Positions 403 to 21,961 of a stretch of DNA of 64,000 bases are shown here, in pieces. The position numbers and the translations under genes were made by a program. Source of the stretch: Propioniciclava tarda. GTDB taxonomy: Bacteria; Actinomycetota; Actinomycetes; Propionibacteriales; Propionibacteriaceae. The notes beneath the pieces were generated by a model, which saw only the letters and a list, made by a program, of their open reading frames with translations, was not told where the DNA came from and did not search any database. Within the stretch, counting starts at the first letter, position 1. Each line of letters opens with the position of its first letter. The stretch is from positions 23,664 through 87,663 of the forward strand of contig NZ_FXTL01000008.1 of NCBI RefSeq assembly GCF_900182665.1, in the 5' to 3' direction.

Positions 403-669
403 GTATGGGTCCTCGATCAAGCTCCGGCCCTCTCACAGGGCCCTTCGACAGCGCCGTCGTTATCTCGCCGATATCTGTCTAGGCAACCATAATCCGCACG
501 TTCGGCCGCCGAGGGTAAACGCGCCAGTTCGTAACGAACAGGTCACGGAGTCTTGGTGTGGTCGTTGCCACGTCGCGCTCTGGCCGGTGGTGGCTGGTAC
601 GAAAGTACCGTTTGGGTCGTTCTTTGGTGCCGGTGTTGTCGTCCGCCCAGCTTCGACCTGGCCGGGAGG

Positions 670-2394
670 GTGACCACGGTGACCACGACGGTGGCGGGGG
701 TGGCCTCGACGGTGGGGTATAGCTGGCGGGATGATGGGCAGATGACTGCGATCACCCTTGATGGTGTGGCGGTGGCGACGCTCGGTTATGACCCGGCCGG
801 TGAACTGGCCGGGGTCACTTACCCGTTCGGGGGACTGGGTGGCCTCACTAAACAGCCCTCCGGTGCCCTTGTGGGTGATGCGTGGACGGTGAACCTGGCC
901 AACGGTGCCAGCCGTACCTTCACCGAGTCGTTGACCCGCTCCCAGGCTGGCAGGGTCACCGCGTCATCCTGGACCGATACCGGCAGTCCGGGTAGTGCGG
1001 TGGGGTGGGGGTACAGCTATGACCAGGCCGGACGCCTTACCCAAGCTGTCCTGGCCCCGGCGGCAGGACGGGCCCAAACCAGCTTCGGGTACAGCTTCAC
1101 CCCCACCGGTGGGTGTGGCGCTGACCCGCAAGCCGGCAAGAACGGGTCACGTACCGGGTCAAGTATCCAGACCGGCGCTGGCACACCGCAGGTGACGTCG
1201 TACTGCTACGACCAGGCCTCCCGGCTCACCGCCACCACCGGCGCTAACCCGATCGATCCGGGCACGGTCAGCTACGACCCGCACGGGAACGCGACCCGGA
1301 TCGGTGATCAAACCTGGACCTACAACGCTGCCGACCAAGTCACCGGCACCACGGTGGTGTCGGCGGGGCAACAGCTCGGCTACACGCGTGACCCATCCGG
1401 TCGGGTCGTGCAACGCCAAGCCACGGGCCCTGAAACCGCCACGGCACGCTACGGGTTCGCCGGTGGGGACGATTCCCCAGACTTGCTGCTTGATCCGGCT
1501 GGTCAACCTGTGGAGCGGTATCTGTCTTTGCCTGGCGGGGTCCTGCTCACCAAGCCCACCACCGGTGCCGCCACGAGGTGGGCGGTACCGAACCTGCACG
1601 GCGACACCAGCATCCTGATCGGTATCACCAACGGTGCCGTCACGATCAGCGGTGCAGGCTGGATCAACGACCCGTACGGCCAACCGATCAACCCGAACAC
1701 CGGGCAGATCGACTTGGCAGCCACCCCCACCACCCGGACCGGCACCACGACCACCGATGCCTGGCTCGGTCAACACCAGCGAGGCTTCGAACACACCACC
1801 GGCCTGAACCAAATGCTGATGGGAGCCAGAACCTACCTGCCCAGCCTCGGCATCTTCACTGCTACCGACCCCGTAGAGGGTGGCAACGACACCACCTACA
1901 CCTACCCCAACGACCCCATCAATAAACAAGACCTCAGCGGAGAAAAATGGTGGAATTGGTGGCGCCCCATATCTGGGCTGCAAGTTGCCCGACGCGTATT
2001 GAATCACGGCACCGCTTTCTACTCCTTCAATGGCCCCTTCGTCTCCGCTCAGGGAGGCGTCACATGCATCAAGAGATGCCCATCTGTCTCCGTATCTTTT
2101 GGAGCAGGTGCCTCGGCACAAAAGATCAATAAGGTGGCTAGGTTTGTTCCTGGGACCATGATTGGCTATCAATTTGGGCGACCCACAAACGGGCTGGGTT
2201 TCGGTGCCGCAGCATGCTGGCACGGCTTATGTCTCGGCGCCAGCAGTGGTGACGAAGGCTGGGGTACAGTTAACGGATTCAGCCCTGTATTTGGAATAGG
2301 CACACCAGGCGTTCAATTATGGGCTTTAGGAACATTTGCAGATGAGCGTTCAGGACAGGGGGCCTCGCCGGGTCGCCCAATGAGGGTAAGGTAG
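670..2394 (+). CDS. RHS / YD-repeat protein, N-terminally truncated (about 570 aa). Has the RHS core terminal motif and a C-terminal variable toxin domain (CT).
   Basis: Multiple YD repeats (GYDPAGELAGVTYPFGG, YSYDQAGRLT, YCYDQASRLT, SYDPHGNATRIGD, WTYNAADQVTG). RHS core end motif GARTYLPSLGIFTATDP...YTYPNDPINKQDLSGE. Start uncertain: GTG 670 or 679, after GGGAGG. No upstream same-strand gene. Confidence 0.8.
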   Translation: MTTVTTTVAGVASTVGYSWRDDGQMTAITLDGVAVATLGYDPAGELAGVTYPFGGLGGLTKQPSGALVGDAWTVNLANGASRTFTESLTRSQAGRVTASSWTDTGSPGSAVGWGYSYDQAGRLTQAVLAPAAGRAQTSFGYSFTPTGGCGADPQAGKNGSRTGSSIQTGAGTPQVTSYCYDQASRLTATTGANPIDPGTVSYDPHGNATRIGDQTWTYNAADQVTGTTVVSAGQQLGYTRDPSGRVVQRQATGPETATARYGFAGGDDSPDLLLDPAGQPVERYLSLPGGVLLTKPTTGAATRWAVPNLHGDTSILIGITNGAVTISGAGWINDPYGQPINPNTGQIDLAATPTTRTGTTTTDAWLGQHQRGFEHTTGLNQMLMGARTYLPSLGIFTATDPVEGGNDTTYTYPNDPINKQDLSGEKWWNWWRPISGLQVARRVLNHGTAFYSFNGPFVSAQGGVTCIKRCPSVSVSFGAGASAQKINKVARFVPGTMIGYQFGRPTNGLGFGAAACWHGLCLGASSGDEGWGTVNGFSPVFGIGTPGVQLWALGTFADERSGQGASPGRPMRVR

Positions 2395-2395
2395 C

Positions 2396-2791
2396 ATGAA
2401 TGACTCATTGAAGCCGCGGGGTCTCGCGGTAAAAGTCGGGGCGTTTTGCTCGGCTATTGTCCCTCAGTGGTGCCTTGCTCTGGGCCTGTGGGTGGGGATG
2501 CTGACGGGCATGCAATTCTACTTCTTGGCGGGCATGTTGTCGTTTCTCTTGGTCGCTTCGCTTACCTCTCCTTACAGATACTGGAGTCTATTCAGCTCCG
2601 TCCCGTCAAAGACTGAGCATGAAGATCCCGCCTTCGTTCTTCGTGTCAGGCGTGATTACTTGCGTGCCGCGGCGCACTTATCCGGTTGTCCAGTGGAAAT
2701 TGTGGCCATTCTGGCTTGGCTTGGATGGCTTCTGTTAGGAGTTGCTTGGGTGTTCTTGGTCATTGTCGGTGCCCAGGGCGGTGGGTGGTGA
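2396..2791 (+). CDS. Small polytopic membrane protein (131 aa, 3-4 TM). Candidate cognate immunity protein of the RHS CT toxin.
   Basis: ATG 1 nt after the RHS stop (TAG C ATG). Hydrophobic helices. Lies within the low-GC segment together with the toxin CT. Confidence 0.55.
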   Translation: MNDSLKPRGLAVKVGAFCSAIVPQWCLALGLWVGMLTGMQFYFLAGMLSFLLVASLTSPYRYWSLFSSVPSKTEHEDPAFVLRVRRDYLRAAAHLSGCPVEIVAILAWLGWLLLGVAWVFLVIVGAQGGGW

Positions 2792-2955
2792 GTTTTCCCG
2801 GATTCGAATTGGCGCGCCATTAGTGGCAGCCTGGCTTTCCATTCAGGCCCGCAACAGACAGTCCGGACCTGCGGTCAAGCGTGGACGCAGCCCTGGGGCG
2901 AGGCGCCGCCAGGTTTGCGCAAGGACCTCGTTTCGTAAATACTAGTGTTGTGGAA

Positions 2956-3684
2956 ATGGTCTGGAGTGCCCAGTCCGGACAGAGGCCTTCGGCCGCCGGT
3001 CCGCTGGTCGGCGCCCCGGACGCGACCGAGCCCGAAGCGGACGCCACCCGCCGCCGGGTCGCCCGCTCGATTCTGCAGCACGGACCCTCCACCGCCGCCG
3101 ACCTTGCCGACCGCCTGGGACTCACGTCCGCGGCCGTCCGACGGCACCTCTCGGCCCTCGAACTGTCCGGTGAACTCACCACCCGCGAGCAGCGCGTCTA
3201 CGGCGCGCGCGGGCGGGGGCGTCCGGCTCGGGTCTTTGTCCTGACCGACGCCGGACGCCGCACCTTCGACGCCGCCTACGACGAACTCGCCATCAAGGCC
3301 CTCGACTACCTGTCCCGTCGGGTCGGACCCGGCGCCATCGCCGACTTCGCCGAAGAATCACTTGCCCCCGTCGAGGCAAGGTTCGACGAACTGGAGGGCC
3401 ACGGCGACCGCGCCGAGCGGGTCGTCGAGGCGTTCAACCACGCCGGGTACGCAGCAACGCTCAAGCCGCTGGCGTCCGGACAACAACTCTGCCAACATCA
3501 CTGCCCGGTCGCTCACGTCGCCAGGGCCTACCCCGCCATCTGTCTGGCCGAGACCAGGCTGCTGTCCAAGCTGCTCGGCAGCCACGTCCAGCGGCTCGCC
3601 ACGATCGCCTCGGGCGACGAGGTGTGCACCACGCACATCCCGCACCCGGTCGCGGTAGCCATCGAGGAAAGGAAGAGCTCATGA
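2956..3684 (+). CDS. sufR: SufR-like ArsR-family Fe-S-responsive transcriptional repressor of the suf operon
   Basis: Winged HTH ([20 protein letters not shown]). C-terminal Cys cluster ([10 protein letters not shown]...AICLAE...DEVC). Directly upstream of and overlapping sufB. Confidence 0.75.
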
Positions 3685-17522: not shown

Positions 17523-18544
17523 CGGACAGACAACTGCGCCACTGACGCCCGCACCTGAAGCGGCATGGGGACGAGAATCTCTCCTCCCGGCCGGTCGTGC
17601 GCGAGGACGATCTCCATGGCGCGCCGACCCATCTGCTCGTACGGGAGTTGGGCGGTGGTGAGCGTCGGTCGCAGATAGCCCGCGATCACTTCGTCGTCGA
17701 ACGAGATCACTGATAGGTCATGGGGGATCTGAAGCCCTGCCTGCTGGGTCGCCTGGTAGATGCCGAAGGCAACCCGGTCGTTGGCGGCGATCACGGCAGT
17801 GACGTCGAGCCCGTCGTCCAGCAAGGCCTGAGTCGCCGAGTAGCCGTCCTCGGGCTCCCAGTGCCGCTTCTCGATCGTCCGAGTGAGGGCGAGTCCGCGG
17901 GTGGCCAGTTCTGCCTCGATTCCGGCGAAGCGGCGACCGATGGTGGCAGAGAGGCGGAGATCGGAGCGCAGGTCAGGGTGATCGCCGATCAGGGCGATGC
18001 GGGTGTGCCCGGTGGCCACCAGGTGGGCAGCCACAGCACGGCCCGCCTCAAACTCGTCCGGTAGAACAGAGAGGTGTTGGTCCGGGCTCGTCGCGTTGAG
18101 AAGCACGACCGGCACGCGGGAGGCGGCTGCAGGGACGTCGATCTGTTTGGCGCCCATCAGCGCAATGATCAGCCCATCGGGCTGGCGGTCCAGCATGACG
18201 TCCAGTGCTCGGCGCACCCGCTCCGGGTTCGAGCCGGTCTCCGCGATCAGCACCGTGTGGTCGAGACCCTCGGCCACGTCGAGGGCGCCCCGGATCATCG
18301 CGGAGGCGTACCGCGTGACGGTGACGTCGTCTGAAAGGAGTCCAACCGTTCTGGTCTTGCCAAGGCGCAGGCTGCGCGCCGCGGGGTTCGGTCGGTAGCC
18401 GAGCTCGCGGGCGGCGTCCTTGATGCGCTGAACGGCTTCGGGGGAGAGCCGTGATCCGGGACGGTTGTTGAGAACGAGGCTCACAGCCGTGGTTGACAGG
18501 CCAGCGTGCTGGGCGACATCCACCAGTGTCACGCGTCTTCCCAT
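17519..18544 (-). CDS. LacI family transcriptional regulator
   Basis: N-terminal HTH VTLVDVAQHAGLSTTAVSLVLN followed by a periplasmic-binding-fold domain. Divergent from the sugar ABC operon. Confidence 0.85.
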   Translation of the reverse strand: MGRRVTLVDVAQHAGLSTTAVSLVLNNRPGSRLSPEAVQRIKDAARELGYRPNPAARSLRLGKTRTVGLLSDDVTVTRYASAMIRGALDVAEGLDHTVLIAETGSNPERVRRALDVMLDRQPDGLIIALMGAKQIDVPAAASRVPVVLLNATSPDQHLSVLPDEFEAGRAVAAHLVATGHTRIALIGDHPDLRSDLRLSATIGRRFAGIEAELATRGLALTRTIEKRHWEPEDGYSATQALLDDGLDVTAVIAANDRVAFGIYQATQQAGLQIPHDLSVISFDDEVIAGYLRPTLTTAQLPYEQMGRRAMEIVLAHDRPGGEILVPMPLQVRASVAQLSVR

Positions 18545-18637
18545 GCTCCCATCCTCCCGACTTCGGCAACGGAAATCCGCGCGCCACGCCGTGCGACCCC
18601 CGTCCTTCGGGGCTGAGTATCGCTGCCAGTAGAAACC

Positions 18638-18703
18638 TTTTAGCACCCCTTGACGAGCAGGGAGATCGCTCGTTACCTTAACAGTGCTAAAAGCATTTAG
18701 CAC
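18638..18703. promoter_or_regulatory. Candidate LacI-family operator(s): 20-bp palindrome GTGCTAAAAGCATTTAGCAC (18684-18703) plus an extra half-site CTTTTAGCAC (18637-18646)
   Basis: Near-perfect inverted repeat read directly from the sequence, in the divergent lacI / SBP intergenic region. A TTGACG -35-like hexamer sits at 18650. Confidence 0.45.
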
Positions 18704-18747
18704 CCAAATCAAACTGTCCGCGCCGACGCGGGCACGAAGGAGACACC

Positions 18748-20055
18748 ATGCCGGTCACCTTGAAGAAGATCGCCGTCGCCGCCACCGCGATGACCCTCGC
18801 CATGTCCTTGGGCGCCTGCTCGAAGGGCGGATCCACCCCCGCCAGCCCCGCCCCGGGCGGCTCGGGCTCAAGTGGCGCCGCGGCGTCCGAAATCAGCATG
18901 TGGACGCACAACGCTGGCAACAAGGACGAACTCGCCGCGATCCAGACGATCGTGGACGACTTCAACGGCTCGCAGGCTCAGTACAAGGTCAAGCTGCAGG
19001 CCTTCCCGCAGGAGTCCTACAACCAGTCGGTGACGGCAGCGGCGTCCGCCAAGAAGCTGCCGTGCCTGCTTGATATCGACCAGCCGAACGTGGCCAACTG
19101 GGCTTGGGCGGGGTATCTCGCGCCGATCACGGGCATGGACGACACCTTGTCCAAGTACTTGCCCTCCACGGTCGCGAAGTACAACGGCAAGACCTACGCG
19201 TACGGCTACTACGACGTCTCGCTGACCTGGGTGACCCGCAAGTCGATCCTCGATGAGTTCGGCATCCGCGTTCCGACGATCGAGCAGCCCTGGAAGGCCG
19301 ACGAGTTCATGGCGGCCCTCAAGAAGGTCAAGGACTCCGGAAAGTACGCCAACGCGGCCGACATCGCCACCGGTTGGACCGGTGAATGGTGGCCGTACGG
19401 CTTCTCGCCCTTGCTGCAGAGCTTCGGGGGCGATCTGATCAACCGAACCGACTACAAGACGGCCGACGGCGTCCTCAACGGCGACAAGGCCGTGGCATGG
19501 GCGACCTGGTTCCAGAACCTCGCCAAGGACGGCTACATCGCCAAGAAGTCGGGCTCCGATCCGTCGCAGGACTTCATGAACGGCAAGTCGGCCTTCCTCT
19601 GGAACGGCTCCTGGACGGCGGTTCCCGTGCGCGAGAAGTTCTCTGATGTCGTGTTCGCGCCCCCGGTCGATTTCGGCAACGGAGGCAAGGTCGGCGGCGG
19701 CTCCTGGACGTGGGGTCAGTCGGCCCAGTGCTCGAACCCCGAAGCGGCAGCGGCGTACCTGAAGTTCGCCTCGGCCGACAAGTACGTGGCCCTGGTGGCG
19801 CAGAAGACGAACAACATCCCCACCACGGATGAAGCGGCCAAGTTGGTGCCCGGCTTCGAGCCCGGCGGCGTCAACGACGTGTTCCGCCAGTACTCCAAGA
19901 AGTTCACCGTGATGCGTCCCGAGACCCCGGGGTACCCCTATATCGCCACGGCTTTCGAGAAGACGGCGAAGGACATTCTGAACGGAGCCGACCCGAAGAC
20001 GTCCCTGGACGCCCTCGTCAAGGACATCAACACCAATCAGCAGCAGTACTCCTGA
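18748..20055 (+). CDS. Sugar ABC transporter substrate-binding lipoprotein (family 1 SBP)
   Basis: Lipobox LAMSLGAC. SBP_bac_1-like sequence. Strong RBS GAAGGAG. Confidence 0.85.
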   Translation: MPVTLKKIAVAATAMTLAMSLGACSKGGSTPASPAPGGSGSSGAAASEISMWTHNAGNKDELAAIQTIVDDFNGSQAQYKVKLQAFPQESYNQSVTAAASAKKLPCLLDIDQPNVANWAWAGYLAPITGMDDTLSKYLPSTVAKYNGKTYAYGYYDVSLTWVTRKSILDEFGIRVPTIEQPWKADEFMAALKKVKDSGKYANAADIATGWTGEWWPYGFSPLLQSFGGDLINRTDYKTADGVLNGDKAVAWATWFQNLAKDGYIAKKSGSDPSQDFMNGKSAFLWNGSWTAVPVREKFSDVVFAPPVDFGNGGKVGGGSWTWGQSAQCSNPEAAAAYLKFASADKYVALVAQKTNNIPTTDEAAKLVPGFEPGGVNDVFRQYSKKFTVMRPETPGYPYIATAFEKTAKDILNGADPKTSLDALVKDINTNQQQYS

Positions 20056-20121
20056 CGAGGGACGGCCCCGGGATCTCGGTCATCCCGGGGCCACCTCCTT
20101 CGACCGGTTCGAAAGGGACCC

Positions 20122-21057
20122 ATGGCCACCACTGTCGTCACGGACGCCCCCGCGTCCGATCCCGTCCGGCGGGCTCGCCGGACGACCGTGCGGCGGACCG
20201 CCGGCGTCGGGTGGGCGATGCTCGCCCCGGCGGCCGTCTTGATGATCGTCTTCTTGATCATCCCCATCCTGTTGACCTTCGGCCTGGCGTTCACCAACGC
20301 ACGGCTCATCTCACCGGTCCCGGCCAAGTTCATCGGGATCGACAACTTCGTCCGGCTGTTCGGTTCGGCAACGTTTTGGAAGTCGCTGCTGAACACCGTG
20401 ATCTTCGCCATCGTGATCGTGCCCGTGCAGTCGGGCCTGGCCCTCGTCCTCGCCCTCCTGGTGAACGCGAAGGTGCGCGGCACCAACTTCTTCCGGACGG
20501 TCTACTTCCTGCCCGTCGTGACGTCCATGGTCGTGGTGTCGATGTTGTGGATGTTCATGTACCAGCAGAACGGCCTGATCAACGCCCTGCTCGGCCGCCT
20601 CGGCATTGTCGGTCCGGACTGGCTGGGTGACTCCCGGACGGCCCTATTCGCGCTGATCGTGATGTCGGCCTGGCAGGCGATGGGCTTCCACATGGTCATC
20701 TGGCTGTCGGGTCTGCAGACCATTCCGGGCGAGCTCTACGAGGCGGCCTCCCTCGACGGGGCGTCCACGTGGCAGCAGTTCGCCCACGTCACGTGGCCGG
20801 GGCTGTTGCAAACGCGGACGTTCATCCTGATCACCATCACGATCGCCGCGTTCTCACTGTTCACCCAGGTCAACGTCATGACCCAGGGCGGGCCGCTGGA
20901 TTCGACCTCCACCGTCGTGTTCCAGGCCGTCCGCACCGGCTTCCAGCAGCAGCAGACGGGCTATGCGTCGTCCATCTCGCTGGTGTTCTTCGTGATCGTC
21001 CTCGCGGTGTCGCTCGTCCAGCGGTACCTCACCCGTGACAAGGAGCTCAAGCGATGA
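20122..21057 (+). CDS. Sugar ABC transporter permease (MalF/UgpA type)
   Basis: 6 TM. EAA-loop region (ELYEAASLDGASTWQQFAHVTWP). Confidence 0.9.
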   Translation: MATTVVTDAPASDPVRRARRTTVRRTAGVGWAMLAPAAVLMIVFLIIPILLTFGLAFTNARLISPVPAKFIGIDNFVRLFGSATFWKSLLNTVIFAIVIVPVQSGLALVLALLVNAKVRGTNFFRTVYFLPVVTSMVVVSMLWMFMYQQNGLINALLGRLGIVGPDWLGDSRTALFALIVMSAWQAMGFHMVIWLSGLQTIPGELYEAASLDGASTWQQFAHVTWPGLLQTRTFILITITIAAFSLFTQVNVMTQGGPLDSTSTVVFQAVRTGFQQQQTGYASSISLVFFVIVLAVSLVQRYLTRDKELKR

Positions 21058-21959
21058 CCGCTCCACTCGACGCGTCCGCCAAGGGCGTCGTGCACGCCGC
21101 CGGCGAGAAGCGCCGTCCCTGGCTGCCGTGGGCTGTCCAGGCGCTGCGGATCGCCCTGTGCCTGGTGTTCGGCCTGCCGCTGCTGTTCATGATCGTGTCC
21201 AGCTTCAAGCCCGACACGCAGATCTTCGGTGATCTGGGCTCAGCGTCCGCCTTCCTTCCGGTCGGCAGCCTCAGCCTCGACAACTACCAGGGCGTGTTCG
21301 AGCGGGTGCCGTTCGCGCGGTTCCTGATCAACTCGGTCATCATCTCCGTCGTCACCGTGGGTCTCGGTATCGTCGTCAACTCCATGGCCGCCTTCGCCCT
21401 GTCGCGGCTGAAGTTCCCTGGGCAGAAGCTCGTGCTGGGTGTCATTTTGGCCACGCTGATCGTGCCCTTCGAGACGATGGCGCTGCCGCTGCTGTGGTGG
21501 GTCAATCAACTGCCGTACTTCGACGGCTCGATCGGCTGGCTCGACACGTATGAGGTGCAGATCATCCCGTTCGTCGCGAACGCGTTCTCGATCTATCTCT
21601 TCTACCAGTACTTCGACTCCATCCCGAAGGAGCTGGACGAGGCTGCCACCGTCGACGGTGCCAGCTGGTTCCGGATCTACCGCAGCATCGTCATGCCGCT
21701 CGCCGGACCGGCCATCGCGACCGTCGCGATCTTGACATTCCTGCCGGCCTGGAACTCCTACCTGTGGCCGTTGATGGTGACCCAGTCAGAGAGCATCCGT
21801 CCGGCGATGGTCGGCATCGACTATTTCAAGCAGATGAATGTGTCGTGGGGGCAGATCATGGCCTACGCCAGCATCATTACGGTGCCGGTTCTCGTGCTCT
21901 TCGTCGCCTTCCAGCGGGCGTTCATCAACTCCATCGCCAGCTCCGGCGTGAAGGGATAG
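21054..21959 (+). CDS. Sugar ABC transporter permease (MalG/UgpE type)
   Basis: EAA motif DEAATVDGASWFRIYRSIVMP. ATGA overlap with the upstream permease. Confidence 0.9.
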   Translation: MTAPLDASAKGVVHAAGEKRRPWLPWAVQALRIALCLVFGLPLLFMIVSSFKPDTQIFGDLGSASAFLPVGSLSLDNYQGVFERVPFARFLINSVIISVVTVGLGIVVNSMAAFALSRLKFPGQKLVLGVILATLIVPFETMALPLLWWVNQLPYFDGSIGWLDTYEVQIIPFVANAFSIYLFYQYFDSIPKELDEAATVDGASWFRIYRSIVMPLAGPAIATVAILTFLPAWNSYLWPLMVTQSESIRPAMVGIDYFKQMNVSWGQIMAYASIITVPVLVLFVAFQRAFINSIASSGVKG

Positions 21960-21961
21960 CC

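Follow-up and report, generated by a model that had tools for sequence, protein, structure and literature searches.

A probable orphan RHS toxin/immunity module between hppA and sufR in Propioniciclava tarda

In the genome of the actinobacterium Propioniciclava tarda, an open reading frame (ORF) rich in RHS/YD repeats lies between hppA, the gene for a H+-translocating pyrophosphatase, and sufR, the first gene of a suf cluster, and is followed by a small ORF for a membrane protein. What kind of element is this, how did it come to occupy this junction, and could it still act? We addressed these questions in a stretch of 64,000 nucleotides (contig NZ_FXTL01000008.1, positions 23,664 to 87,663), which is referred to below as the window and whose first nucleotide is position 1. 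A preliminary description, made from the sequence alone, had taken the element for an orphan module of a polymorphic-toxin system, that is, an RHS fragment with a C-terminal domain (CT) of unknown family and an immunity gene. On the basis of the comparisons presented here, we consider it very probable that nucleotides 648–2911 are a stranded orphan RHS-CT/immunity module: what is left of a polymorphic RHS toxin locus that the Propioniciclava lineage has between hppA and sufR.

The RHS fragment and the composition of its cassette

The RHS ORF matches the Pfam model RHS_repeat (PF05593) in three stretches with an E-value of 6.5e-7 and a score of 30.1 bits (cutoff 22), and residues 412–463 (numbered here on an ORF of 613 aa) match TIGR03696, Rhs_assc_core, at 31.3 bits, 1.2 below the cutoff of 32.5. 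When a profile of 33 family members was compared with the PDB, it retrieved RhsP (8h8b, E = 3e-17), as well as Tse15, Tse5 and teneurins. The AF2 model obtained from the alignment of these 33 sequences consists entirely of β-hairpins over residues 1–370, with a predicted local distance difference test score (pLDDT) of ~90, and its top 40 PDB matches in Foldseek are all Rhs, TcB/TcC or teneurin shells (E-values 1e-15 to 1e-7). The protein is already deposited as an "RHS repeat protein" (P0001, 100% identical; GenBank contig SDMR01000005.1), and the YD-repeat character that had been read from the letters is thus confirmed.

Residues 33–463 align with residues 1786–2215 of a 2385-aa RHS protein encoded in a related array (L084); the amino acid identity to that protein is 54.7% over 509 aa. 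The window ORF has no signal peptide and no PA14 domain, both of which are present in the longer protein, and lacks ~1785 aa, about three quarters of the shell; the solved closed Rhs cores measure ~1020–1050 aa, versus ~430 aa of shell in the window. Because only this much shell is present and the signal peptide and PA14 are missing, the ORF, judged from its alignment, is a 5'-truncated RHS fragment and not a full member of the family, which justifies the term orphan used in the preliminary description. Truncated modules elsewhere begin at varying points, equivalent to residues 1687–1929 of the main protein, and these differing breakpoints speak for truncation at random and against a conserved "short RHS" design.

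The part of the shell that remains includes a putative autoprotease motif. The relevant residues are R426, D439 and D460-L-S-G463, and the shell ends in …DPINKQ-DLSG-E. The family consensus, ARxYLPxLGxF..TDPVEGGN..Y.YP.DPIN..DLxG, in which R, D and D-L-x-G are at least 90% conserved among the 33 members, aligns with ARYYDPKLGRF…DP…NPIQWIDPTG of RhsP. Tse5 has two catalytic aspartates and is cleaved after DPxGL (PMC10684867); the window carries a variant, DPVEG-X16-DLSG, with a D-to-D spacing of 21, versus DPxG-X18-19-DPxG[L]. Since cleaved RhsP extends one residue past the aligned glycine, autocleavage of the window protein is predicted to occur after E464 and would release a CT of 149 aa.

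The CT and the small ORF behind it differ strongly from their surroundings in base composition. The GC content of the whole window is 69.4%, and ~250 windows of 1 kb have a mean of 0.694 and a standard deviation of 0.029; the lowest of them, at 1751–2750, has 56.0% GC, approximately -4.6 standard deviations. The host genes have 69% GC, a GC content at third codon positions (GC3) of ~0.92 and a codon adaptation index (CAI) of 0.72 +/- 0.055 (n = 32; CAI was computed relative to these 32 host genes). The corresponding values are 65.8%, 0.77 and 0.48 for the RHS part, 55.3%, 0.51 and 0.19 for the CT, and 55.7%, 0.63 and 0.25 for the small ORF, which encodes 131 aa. The RHS part is also rich in codons that the host uses sparingly, namely CAA (13 of 23 Gln codons, versus 8.5% in the host), GGT (19/62 versus 9.3%), TAT (4/17 versus 8.8%) and ACT (4/64 versus 1.6%), an enrichment of 3–7 times. 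Both the drop in GC and the rare codons had been pointed out in the preliminary description, and the sliding-window calculation bears this out, with 55–56% GC over the CT and the immunity ORF, the lowest kilobase in the 64 kb; GC and codon usage are far from uniform, the GC3 and CAI of these two segments lying far below those of the host. The CT/immunity cassette has a foreign base composition. Elsewhere in the window, the second-lowest GC (63–64%) is found at 18250–21960, across three genes with host-like GC3 (~0.91–0.93), and there the low GC reflects amino acid composition, not foreign DNA.

Relatives of the locus and the exchange of cassettes

In five other genomes of Propionibacteriales (L077, L005, L060, L049 and L004), hppA and sufR are divergent direct neighbours, ~0.1–0.2 kb apart and without RHS, and none of 80 sufR loci carries RHS (0/80). 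The gap between the two genes in P. tarda is 2.55 kb. As far as gene order tells, the RHS island is an insertion at the hppA-sufR junction. The intergenic DNA of the other Propionibacteriales is too diverged for the ancestral junction to be mapped, only the sufR coding sequence being alignable.

Two contigs contain close relatives of the RHS core: L001, of 4.8 kb, from run SRR30884386 in the Logan assembly collection, and L087, the metagenome contig APMI01131852.1. L001 is 90% identical in nucleotide sequence to the window over 629–1941, the homology starting abruptly at 647/648, and L087 is 89% identical over 668–1949. For both, the similarity is lost at the DLSG codons, to within a few bases (nucleotides 1941–1949). 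Past this junction, L001 encodes an unrelated hydrophobic CT and an ORF of 227–231 aa, and L087 (1914–2980) encodes a CT with an HExxH motif (HEDRH) that resembles the CT of P0004, followed by a lipoprotein-like ORF of 194 aa. Cores that are ~90% identical therefore continue, from one and the same codon on, into unrelated CTs with unrelated ORFs behind them, so that the C-terminus is anything but conserved; this is the polymorphic-toxin architecture with an exchanged CT/immunity cassette that had been proposed for the window.

The right border is defined by L087, in which positions 3047–3144 correspond at 91% identity to window 2914–3011, immediately upstream of sufR and including its first codons, the flank homology beginning at ~2912. 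L087 thus rejoins the window at the sufR flank, which indicates the same chromosomal site with a different cassette. Its RHS sequence extends upstream for at least 208 codons beyond the window breakpoint before the contig ends, and this longer rhs at a sufR-proximal site suggests that the locus was once longer and that the window holds the stump of a resident, recombining rhs locus. The earlier idea of a displaced cassette consequently holds only in part: the island is indeed absent from the hppA-sufR junction in the five other genomes, but it is not a lone cassette in a naive site.

The cores themselves are mosaics. Against a background divergence of ~10%, the window is identical to L001 (100%) over 648–~860 and to L087 (100%) over ~1100–1291, while L001 and L087 are 97–100% identical to each other over 1592–1890, a pattern that points to repeated homologous exchange, including recent recombination between lineages. 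Compared with the window, the RHS core of L087 contains a 34-nt deletion and a +1 insertion and is frameshifted, either because it is a pseudogene or because of sequencing errors. The RHS of L001 is interrupted by an IS3-family element with rve and HTH_Tnp_1 ORFs (L001 1–1700). This element lies between the truncated RHS and a 53-nt piece that is 92% identical to mid-sufR (window 3258–3310), and the layout represents either a rearrangement of the same sufR-linked rhs locus mediated by the insertion sequence or an assembly path through a repeated insertion sequence.

The full-length state of the family can be seen in L084, a classical array of a main gene and an orphan. The 2385-aa main protein (signal peptide VRSF…AQA, PA14, RHS) is followed by a 137-aa ORF, a 490-aa RHS fragment with its own CT (P0012, 66% identical to the window protein), a 136-aa ORF and a transposase. 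The search for a full-length rhs that the preliminary description had called for thus found one in a relative; no other RHS was detected in the window (~61 kb downstream of the module) or in the 9.3 kb upstream of it. Since neither side of the module shows a full-length rhs over these distances, it is regarded as stranded. Truncated RHS-CT modules without a full-length rhs within 10 kb are also found in Agromyces subbeticus (L090, 10001–12584), where a pentapeptide-repeat ORF follows, and in Microbacterium sp. SSM24 (L089, 5480–12487), in an array that includes an ORF for an AHH nuclease.

The C-terminal domain, the candidate immunity gene and the limits of the element

No model in Pfam, NCBIfam or PADLOC matches the CT, in agreement with its description as a domain of no known family, and no match was found in viral contigs or plasmids. 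An exhaustive phmmer comparison of the 150-aa CT with 1.84 billion cluster representatives returned only the sequence itself and one marginal match. The latter, P0121 (E = 5e-4), is a subtilase with repeated Fn3-like domains in which a 48-aa stretch was summed over four repeats, and it was rejected, as was a weak, non-significant CxxxxCLG similarity to the CT of P0014. Word-index protein searches with the CT and the 131-aa ORF were empty, but the CT query missed its own protein and was not relied on. By these comparisons the CT is a sequence singleton, with no credible homologue among the 1.84 billion cluster representatives or among the ~15 billion predicted proteins. The CTs of 110 homologues are mostly 125–180 aa long and mutually unrelated in sequence, and ~30% of them start with a hydrophobic helix. 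A motif of the form xWW follows directly after DLxG-x in otherwise unrelated CTs, as KWWNWW (window 1945–1962), AWWDAV, SWWSDL and AWWDDL (P0010), the occurrences including L001 at ~3213–3225 and the C-terminus of the L084 main protein; it may be a conserved linker or a release signal.

The window CT contains 17% Gly, seven Trp and four Cys in two close pairs, has a net charge of +9 and no transmembrane segment, and carries the stretch G-L-C-L-G-A-S-S-G, of the form GxxxGxxxG. The probability that a frame of this composition would contain no stop across the CT is ~2e-3. In view of the two Cys pairs, the GxxxGxxxG stretch, the positive charge and a polytopic membrane protein as the immunity candidate, the cell envelope or membrane is the probable target of the CT, by analogy with the pairs Tse5/Tsi5 and TspA/TsaI; this is the weakest of our inferences.

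As the preliminary description had noted, a small membrane protein is encoded 1 nt downstream, the toxin stop codon at 2392–2394 being followed by an ATG at 2396. With the sequence AGGGTAAGG, which resembles a Shine-Dalgarno (SD) site, upstream of this ATG, the 131-aa ORF appears to be translationally coupled to the toxin gene. Its product has three hydrophobic segments (~aa 12–34, 35–59 and 95–131), and its GC content by codon position (GC3 > GC1 > GC2) follows the coding type. Small coupled ORFs stand in the same place after the CTs of L001, where the 227–231-aa ORF overlaps the toxin gene, of L084 (137 and 136 aa) and of L087 (194 aa), and all of these downstream ORFs are mutually unrelated. 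The coupling and the SD-like sequence, the coding pattern, the product rich in transmembrane segments and the equivalent ORFs after every related CT argue that the 131-aa ORF is a gene, and its position and properties make it a probable immunity gene. It is missing from the GenBank annotation of P. tarda, in which nothing is called between the RHS gene and sufR (SDMR01000005.1), and no record of its exact product exists in a collection of 15 billion proteins.

The limits of the element and of its parts are collected in Table 1. Positions 403–2955 had been assigned to it originally, a span that proves too wide on both sides: 403–647 does not code for RHS, which is recognizable from nucleotide 648 on, and the cassette ends at ~2911, where the flank homology to L087 resumes. 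The first possible starts in the RHS frame are TTG 553 and GTG 556, the GenBank start is GTG 679 and the frame ends at 2394, being uninterrupted over 571–613 codons; the left spacer stretch 553–648 has a CAI of 0.27.

Table 1. Segments of the hppA-sufR interval in P. tarda (coordinates of the window)
Feature	Position	Strand	Remarks
hppA 5' end (H+-translocating pyrophosphatase), left flank	1–401	minus	ATG 399–401; PF03030 gene in the same place in SDMR01000005.1; outside the element
Unique spacer, left junction	402–647	no strand	Not homologous to RHS; stop codons in frame at 490 and 532
5'-truncated RHS/YD-repeat shell fragment, ~430 aa	648–1941	plus	Includes C-terminal plug and putative aspartyl autoprotease motif
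Polymorphic C-terminal (putative toxin) domain, CT, with stop codon	1942–2394	plus	149 aa (KWWNWW…MRVR) after predicted autocleavage
Candidate immunity gene, 131-aa polytopic membrane protein	2396–2791	plus	Based on ORF, hydropathy and position
3' tail of the variable cassette	2792–2911	no strand	Not common to L087; weak terminator-like hairpin at 2770–2797 (terminator scan)
sufR upstream region and sufR (ATG 2956), then sufBDC…	2912–3684	plus	HTH_20/HTH_5 matches; outside the element

To the left, the neighbour lies on the opposite strand, as had been described, and to the right sufR is followed on the plus strand by the suf operon, with sufB, sufD and further genes. A second H+-pyrophosphatase paralogue (PF03030; 10457–12745, minus strand) is located downstream of the suf genes, so that the operon is bracketed by two such genes, of which the one at 1–401 is divergent from the RHS island. 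The window contains no transposase, as previously stated, and no tRNA or Rfam family was found in it; the island is not bordered by direct repeats, inverted repeats or att-like sites. An inverted RHS remnant was considered on the minus strand at 500–615, where there are short inverted matches and a YD-like peptide, but was rejected as random genome windows give equal blastx scores.

Possible function, alternatives and known systems

In the full-length form represented by L084, an RHS toxin of this family would comprise ~2400 aa, with a Sec signal peptide, PA14 and a closed YD-repeat shell around a variable toxin of ~150 aa, which would be freed by the aspartyl autoprotease at ...DPxN..DLxG-x, the small immunity gene standing next to it. 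P. tarda would have kept the last ~430 aa of the shell with the autoprotease plug, the unique 149-aa CT and the coupled ORF for the 131-aa membrane protein. The CT/immunity cassette (1942–2911) would have been acquired by recombination from a donor of lower GC, with the left crossover in the conserved RHS core. As the signal peptide, PA14 and ~1785 aa of the shell are lacking, the product could presumably not be exported and would have no cocoon, and the toxin would be cryptic and is probably not deployable. An orphan immunity gene is commonly of use by itself, and the retained value of the module likely lies in its immunity gene, as a protection from neighbours that deploy the window CT. In addition, the fragment might serve as a recombination substrate or be re-armed by a full-length rhs allele. 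For Salmonella orphans, re-arming by recombination has been demonstrated, and an orphan immunity protein protects (PMC3967940).

A bolder version of this proposal would make the CT the founding and only known member of a new family of envelope or membrane toxins directed against Gram-positives, paired with a new polytopic membrane immunity protein, in a cassette that is still "live", being either re-armable or expressed internally. We regard this version as improbable.

Several points weigh against the interpretation as a stranded orphan module. The stranding is known from ~9 kb upstream and 61 kb downstream only, and P. tarda may carry a full-length rhs elsewhere. In addition, the RHS ORF is intact, and the ratio of nonsynonymous to synonymous substitution rates (dN/dS) between the cores of the window and L001 is 0.17, so that by this measure the truncation either is very recent or has left the fragment under constraint. 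Toxicity is a predicted role of the CT, for which AF2, run on it as a single sequence, is uninformative (pLDDT 31). As for the immunity ORF, homologues were not found among proteins, metagenome contigs or plasmids, and its length alone is not significant, since an open frame of equal length arises in 17.6% of shuffles of the 521-nt region.

Among the alternatives, it is unlikely that the whole module is a functionless relic in which the 5' end of rhs was deleted recently and the CT and the downstream ORF are now inactive. Such decay would account for the missing export and start signals, for the fact that PGAP made no call of the 131-aa ORF and for the lack of homologues of either product, and the frameshifts in the RHS core of L087 also speak for it. 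A dead locus would not, however, be expected to keep both ORFs uninterrupted, given the low probability calculated above for the CT from composition alone, or to retain the 1-nt coupling and the SD-like sequence, and the general usefulness of orphan immunity genes likewise speaks for a module that retains some value.

Alternatively, the truncated gene might be expressed by itself, from GTG 679 or from internal starts, and form a toxin-antitoxin-like pair inside the producer, in which the co-translated membrane protein would restrain the CT. Internal action of this kind has been reported for Salmonella rhs elements, one of them an orphan (PMC7043789), and the intact ORF, the low dN/dS and the recurrence of stranded truncated modules with no main gene within 10 kb in Agromyces and Microbacterium could be read in its favour. 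The low dN/dS may, however, date from the period when both copies were full length, and the varying truncation points argue against a selected "short RHS" architecture. An SD-like GGGAGGG is located 9 nt upstream of GTG 679, but these letters are just the Gly-Arg codons of a YD repeat, and no promoter-like site was found upstream. Furthermore, a polytopic membrane immunity protein and the Cys pairs are a better fit for an extracytoplasmic target, and we consider internal action of the pair quite improbable. A complete, conserved, non-toxin YD-repeat surface protein, for which nothing speaks beyond the presence of YD repeats, is refuted by the absence of a signal peptide, the alignment with only the last quarter of full-length relatives, the C-terminus that varies between 90%-identical cores and the autoprotease motif.

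The interpretation as a stranded orphan module places the element beside several known systems. Like the enterobacterial orphan rhs-CT/rhsI pairs, such as rhs-orphan of Salmonella Typhimurium LT2 (PMC3967940, PMC7043789), it is 5'-truncated and without start or export signals, keeps the 3' end of the core with a divergent CT and, in tight linkage, an immunity gene, and has a cassette that differs in GC from the core, whose homology could allow recombination with a main gene. In contrast to these, its host is an actinobacterium and its parent family combines a Sec signal, PA14 and RHS instead of being linked to PAAR/VgrG of a type VI secretion system; moreover, its core piece is long (~430 aa), its predicted cleavage motif is DLxG-x and not DPxGL, and it is stranded (no main rhs within ~-9 kb / +61 kb), whereas enterobacterial orphans lie directly downstream of the main gene. 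With the Sec-dependent RHS toxins of Gram-positives (the WapA type of Bacillus subtilis) and the actinobacterial PA14-RHS proteins such as the L084 main protein, it shares the YD-shell family, the C-terminal plug motif and CTs of ~150 aa, each with a small immunity ORF after it, but not their N-terminal export and shell regions. Tse5/Tsi5 is comparable in that Tse5, a pore-forming Rhs toxin of P. aeruginosa, is encapsulated by RHS (PMC10684867); the window CT is Gly-rich with a GxxxGxxxG stretch, and the 131-aa product, if it is an immunity protein, would resemble the membrane-embedded immunity proteins of Tse5/Tsi5 and TspA/TsaI (PMC9484751). The CT has, however, neither sequence similarity to Tse5-CT nor a predicted transmembrane helix, and the likeness is a functional inference only.

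The element is otherwise a typical remnant of inter-bacterial warfare and leaves the knowledge of RHS systems unchanged; as far as can be judged from sequence comparison, it is of an ordinary kind, and its toxin tip is new. It provides a well-delimited actinobacterial case of RHS toxin-tip swapping at a fixed site, between hppA and sufR, with borders mapped within a few bases and with mosaic recombination tracts visible between species-level relatives, and it includes a probable immunity gene that is absent from public annotation. Should the CT prove active, it would represent a new antibacterial activity against Gram-positive cells.

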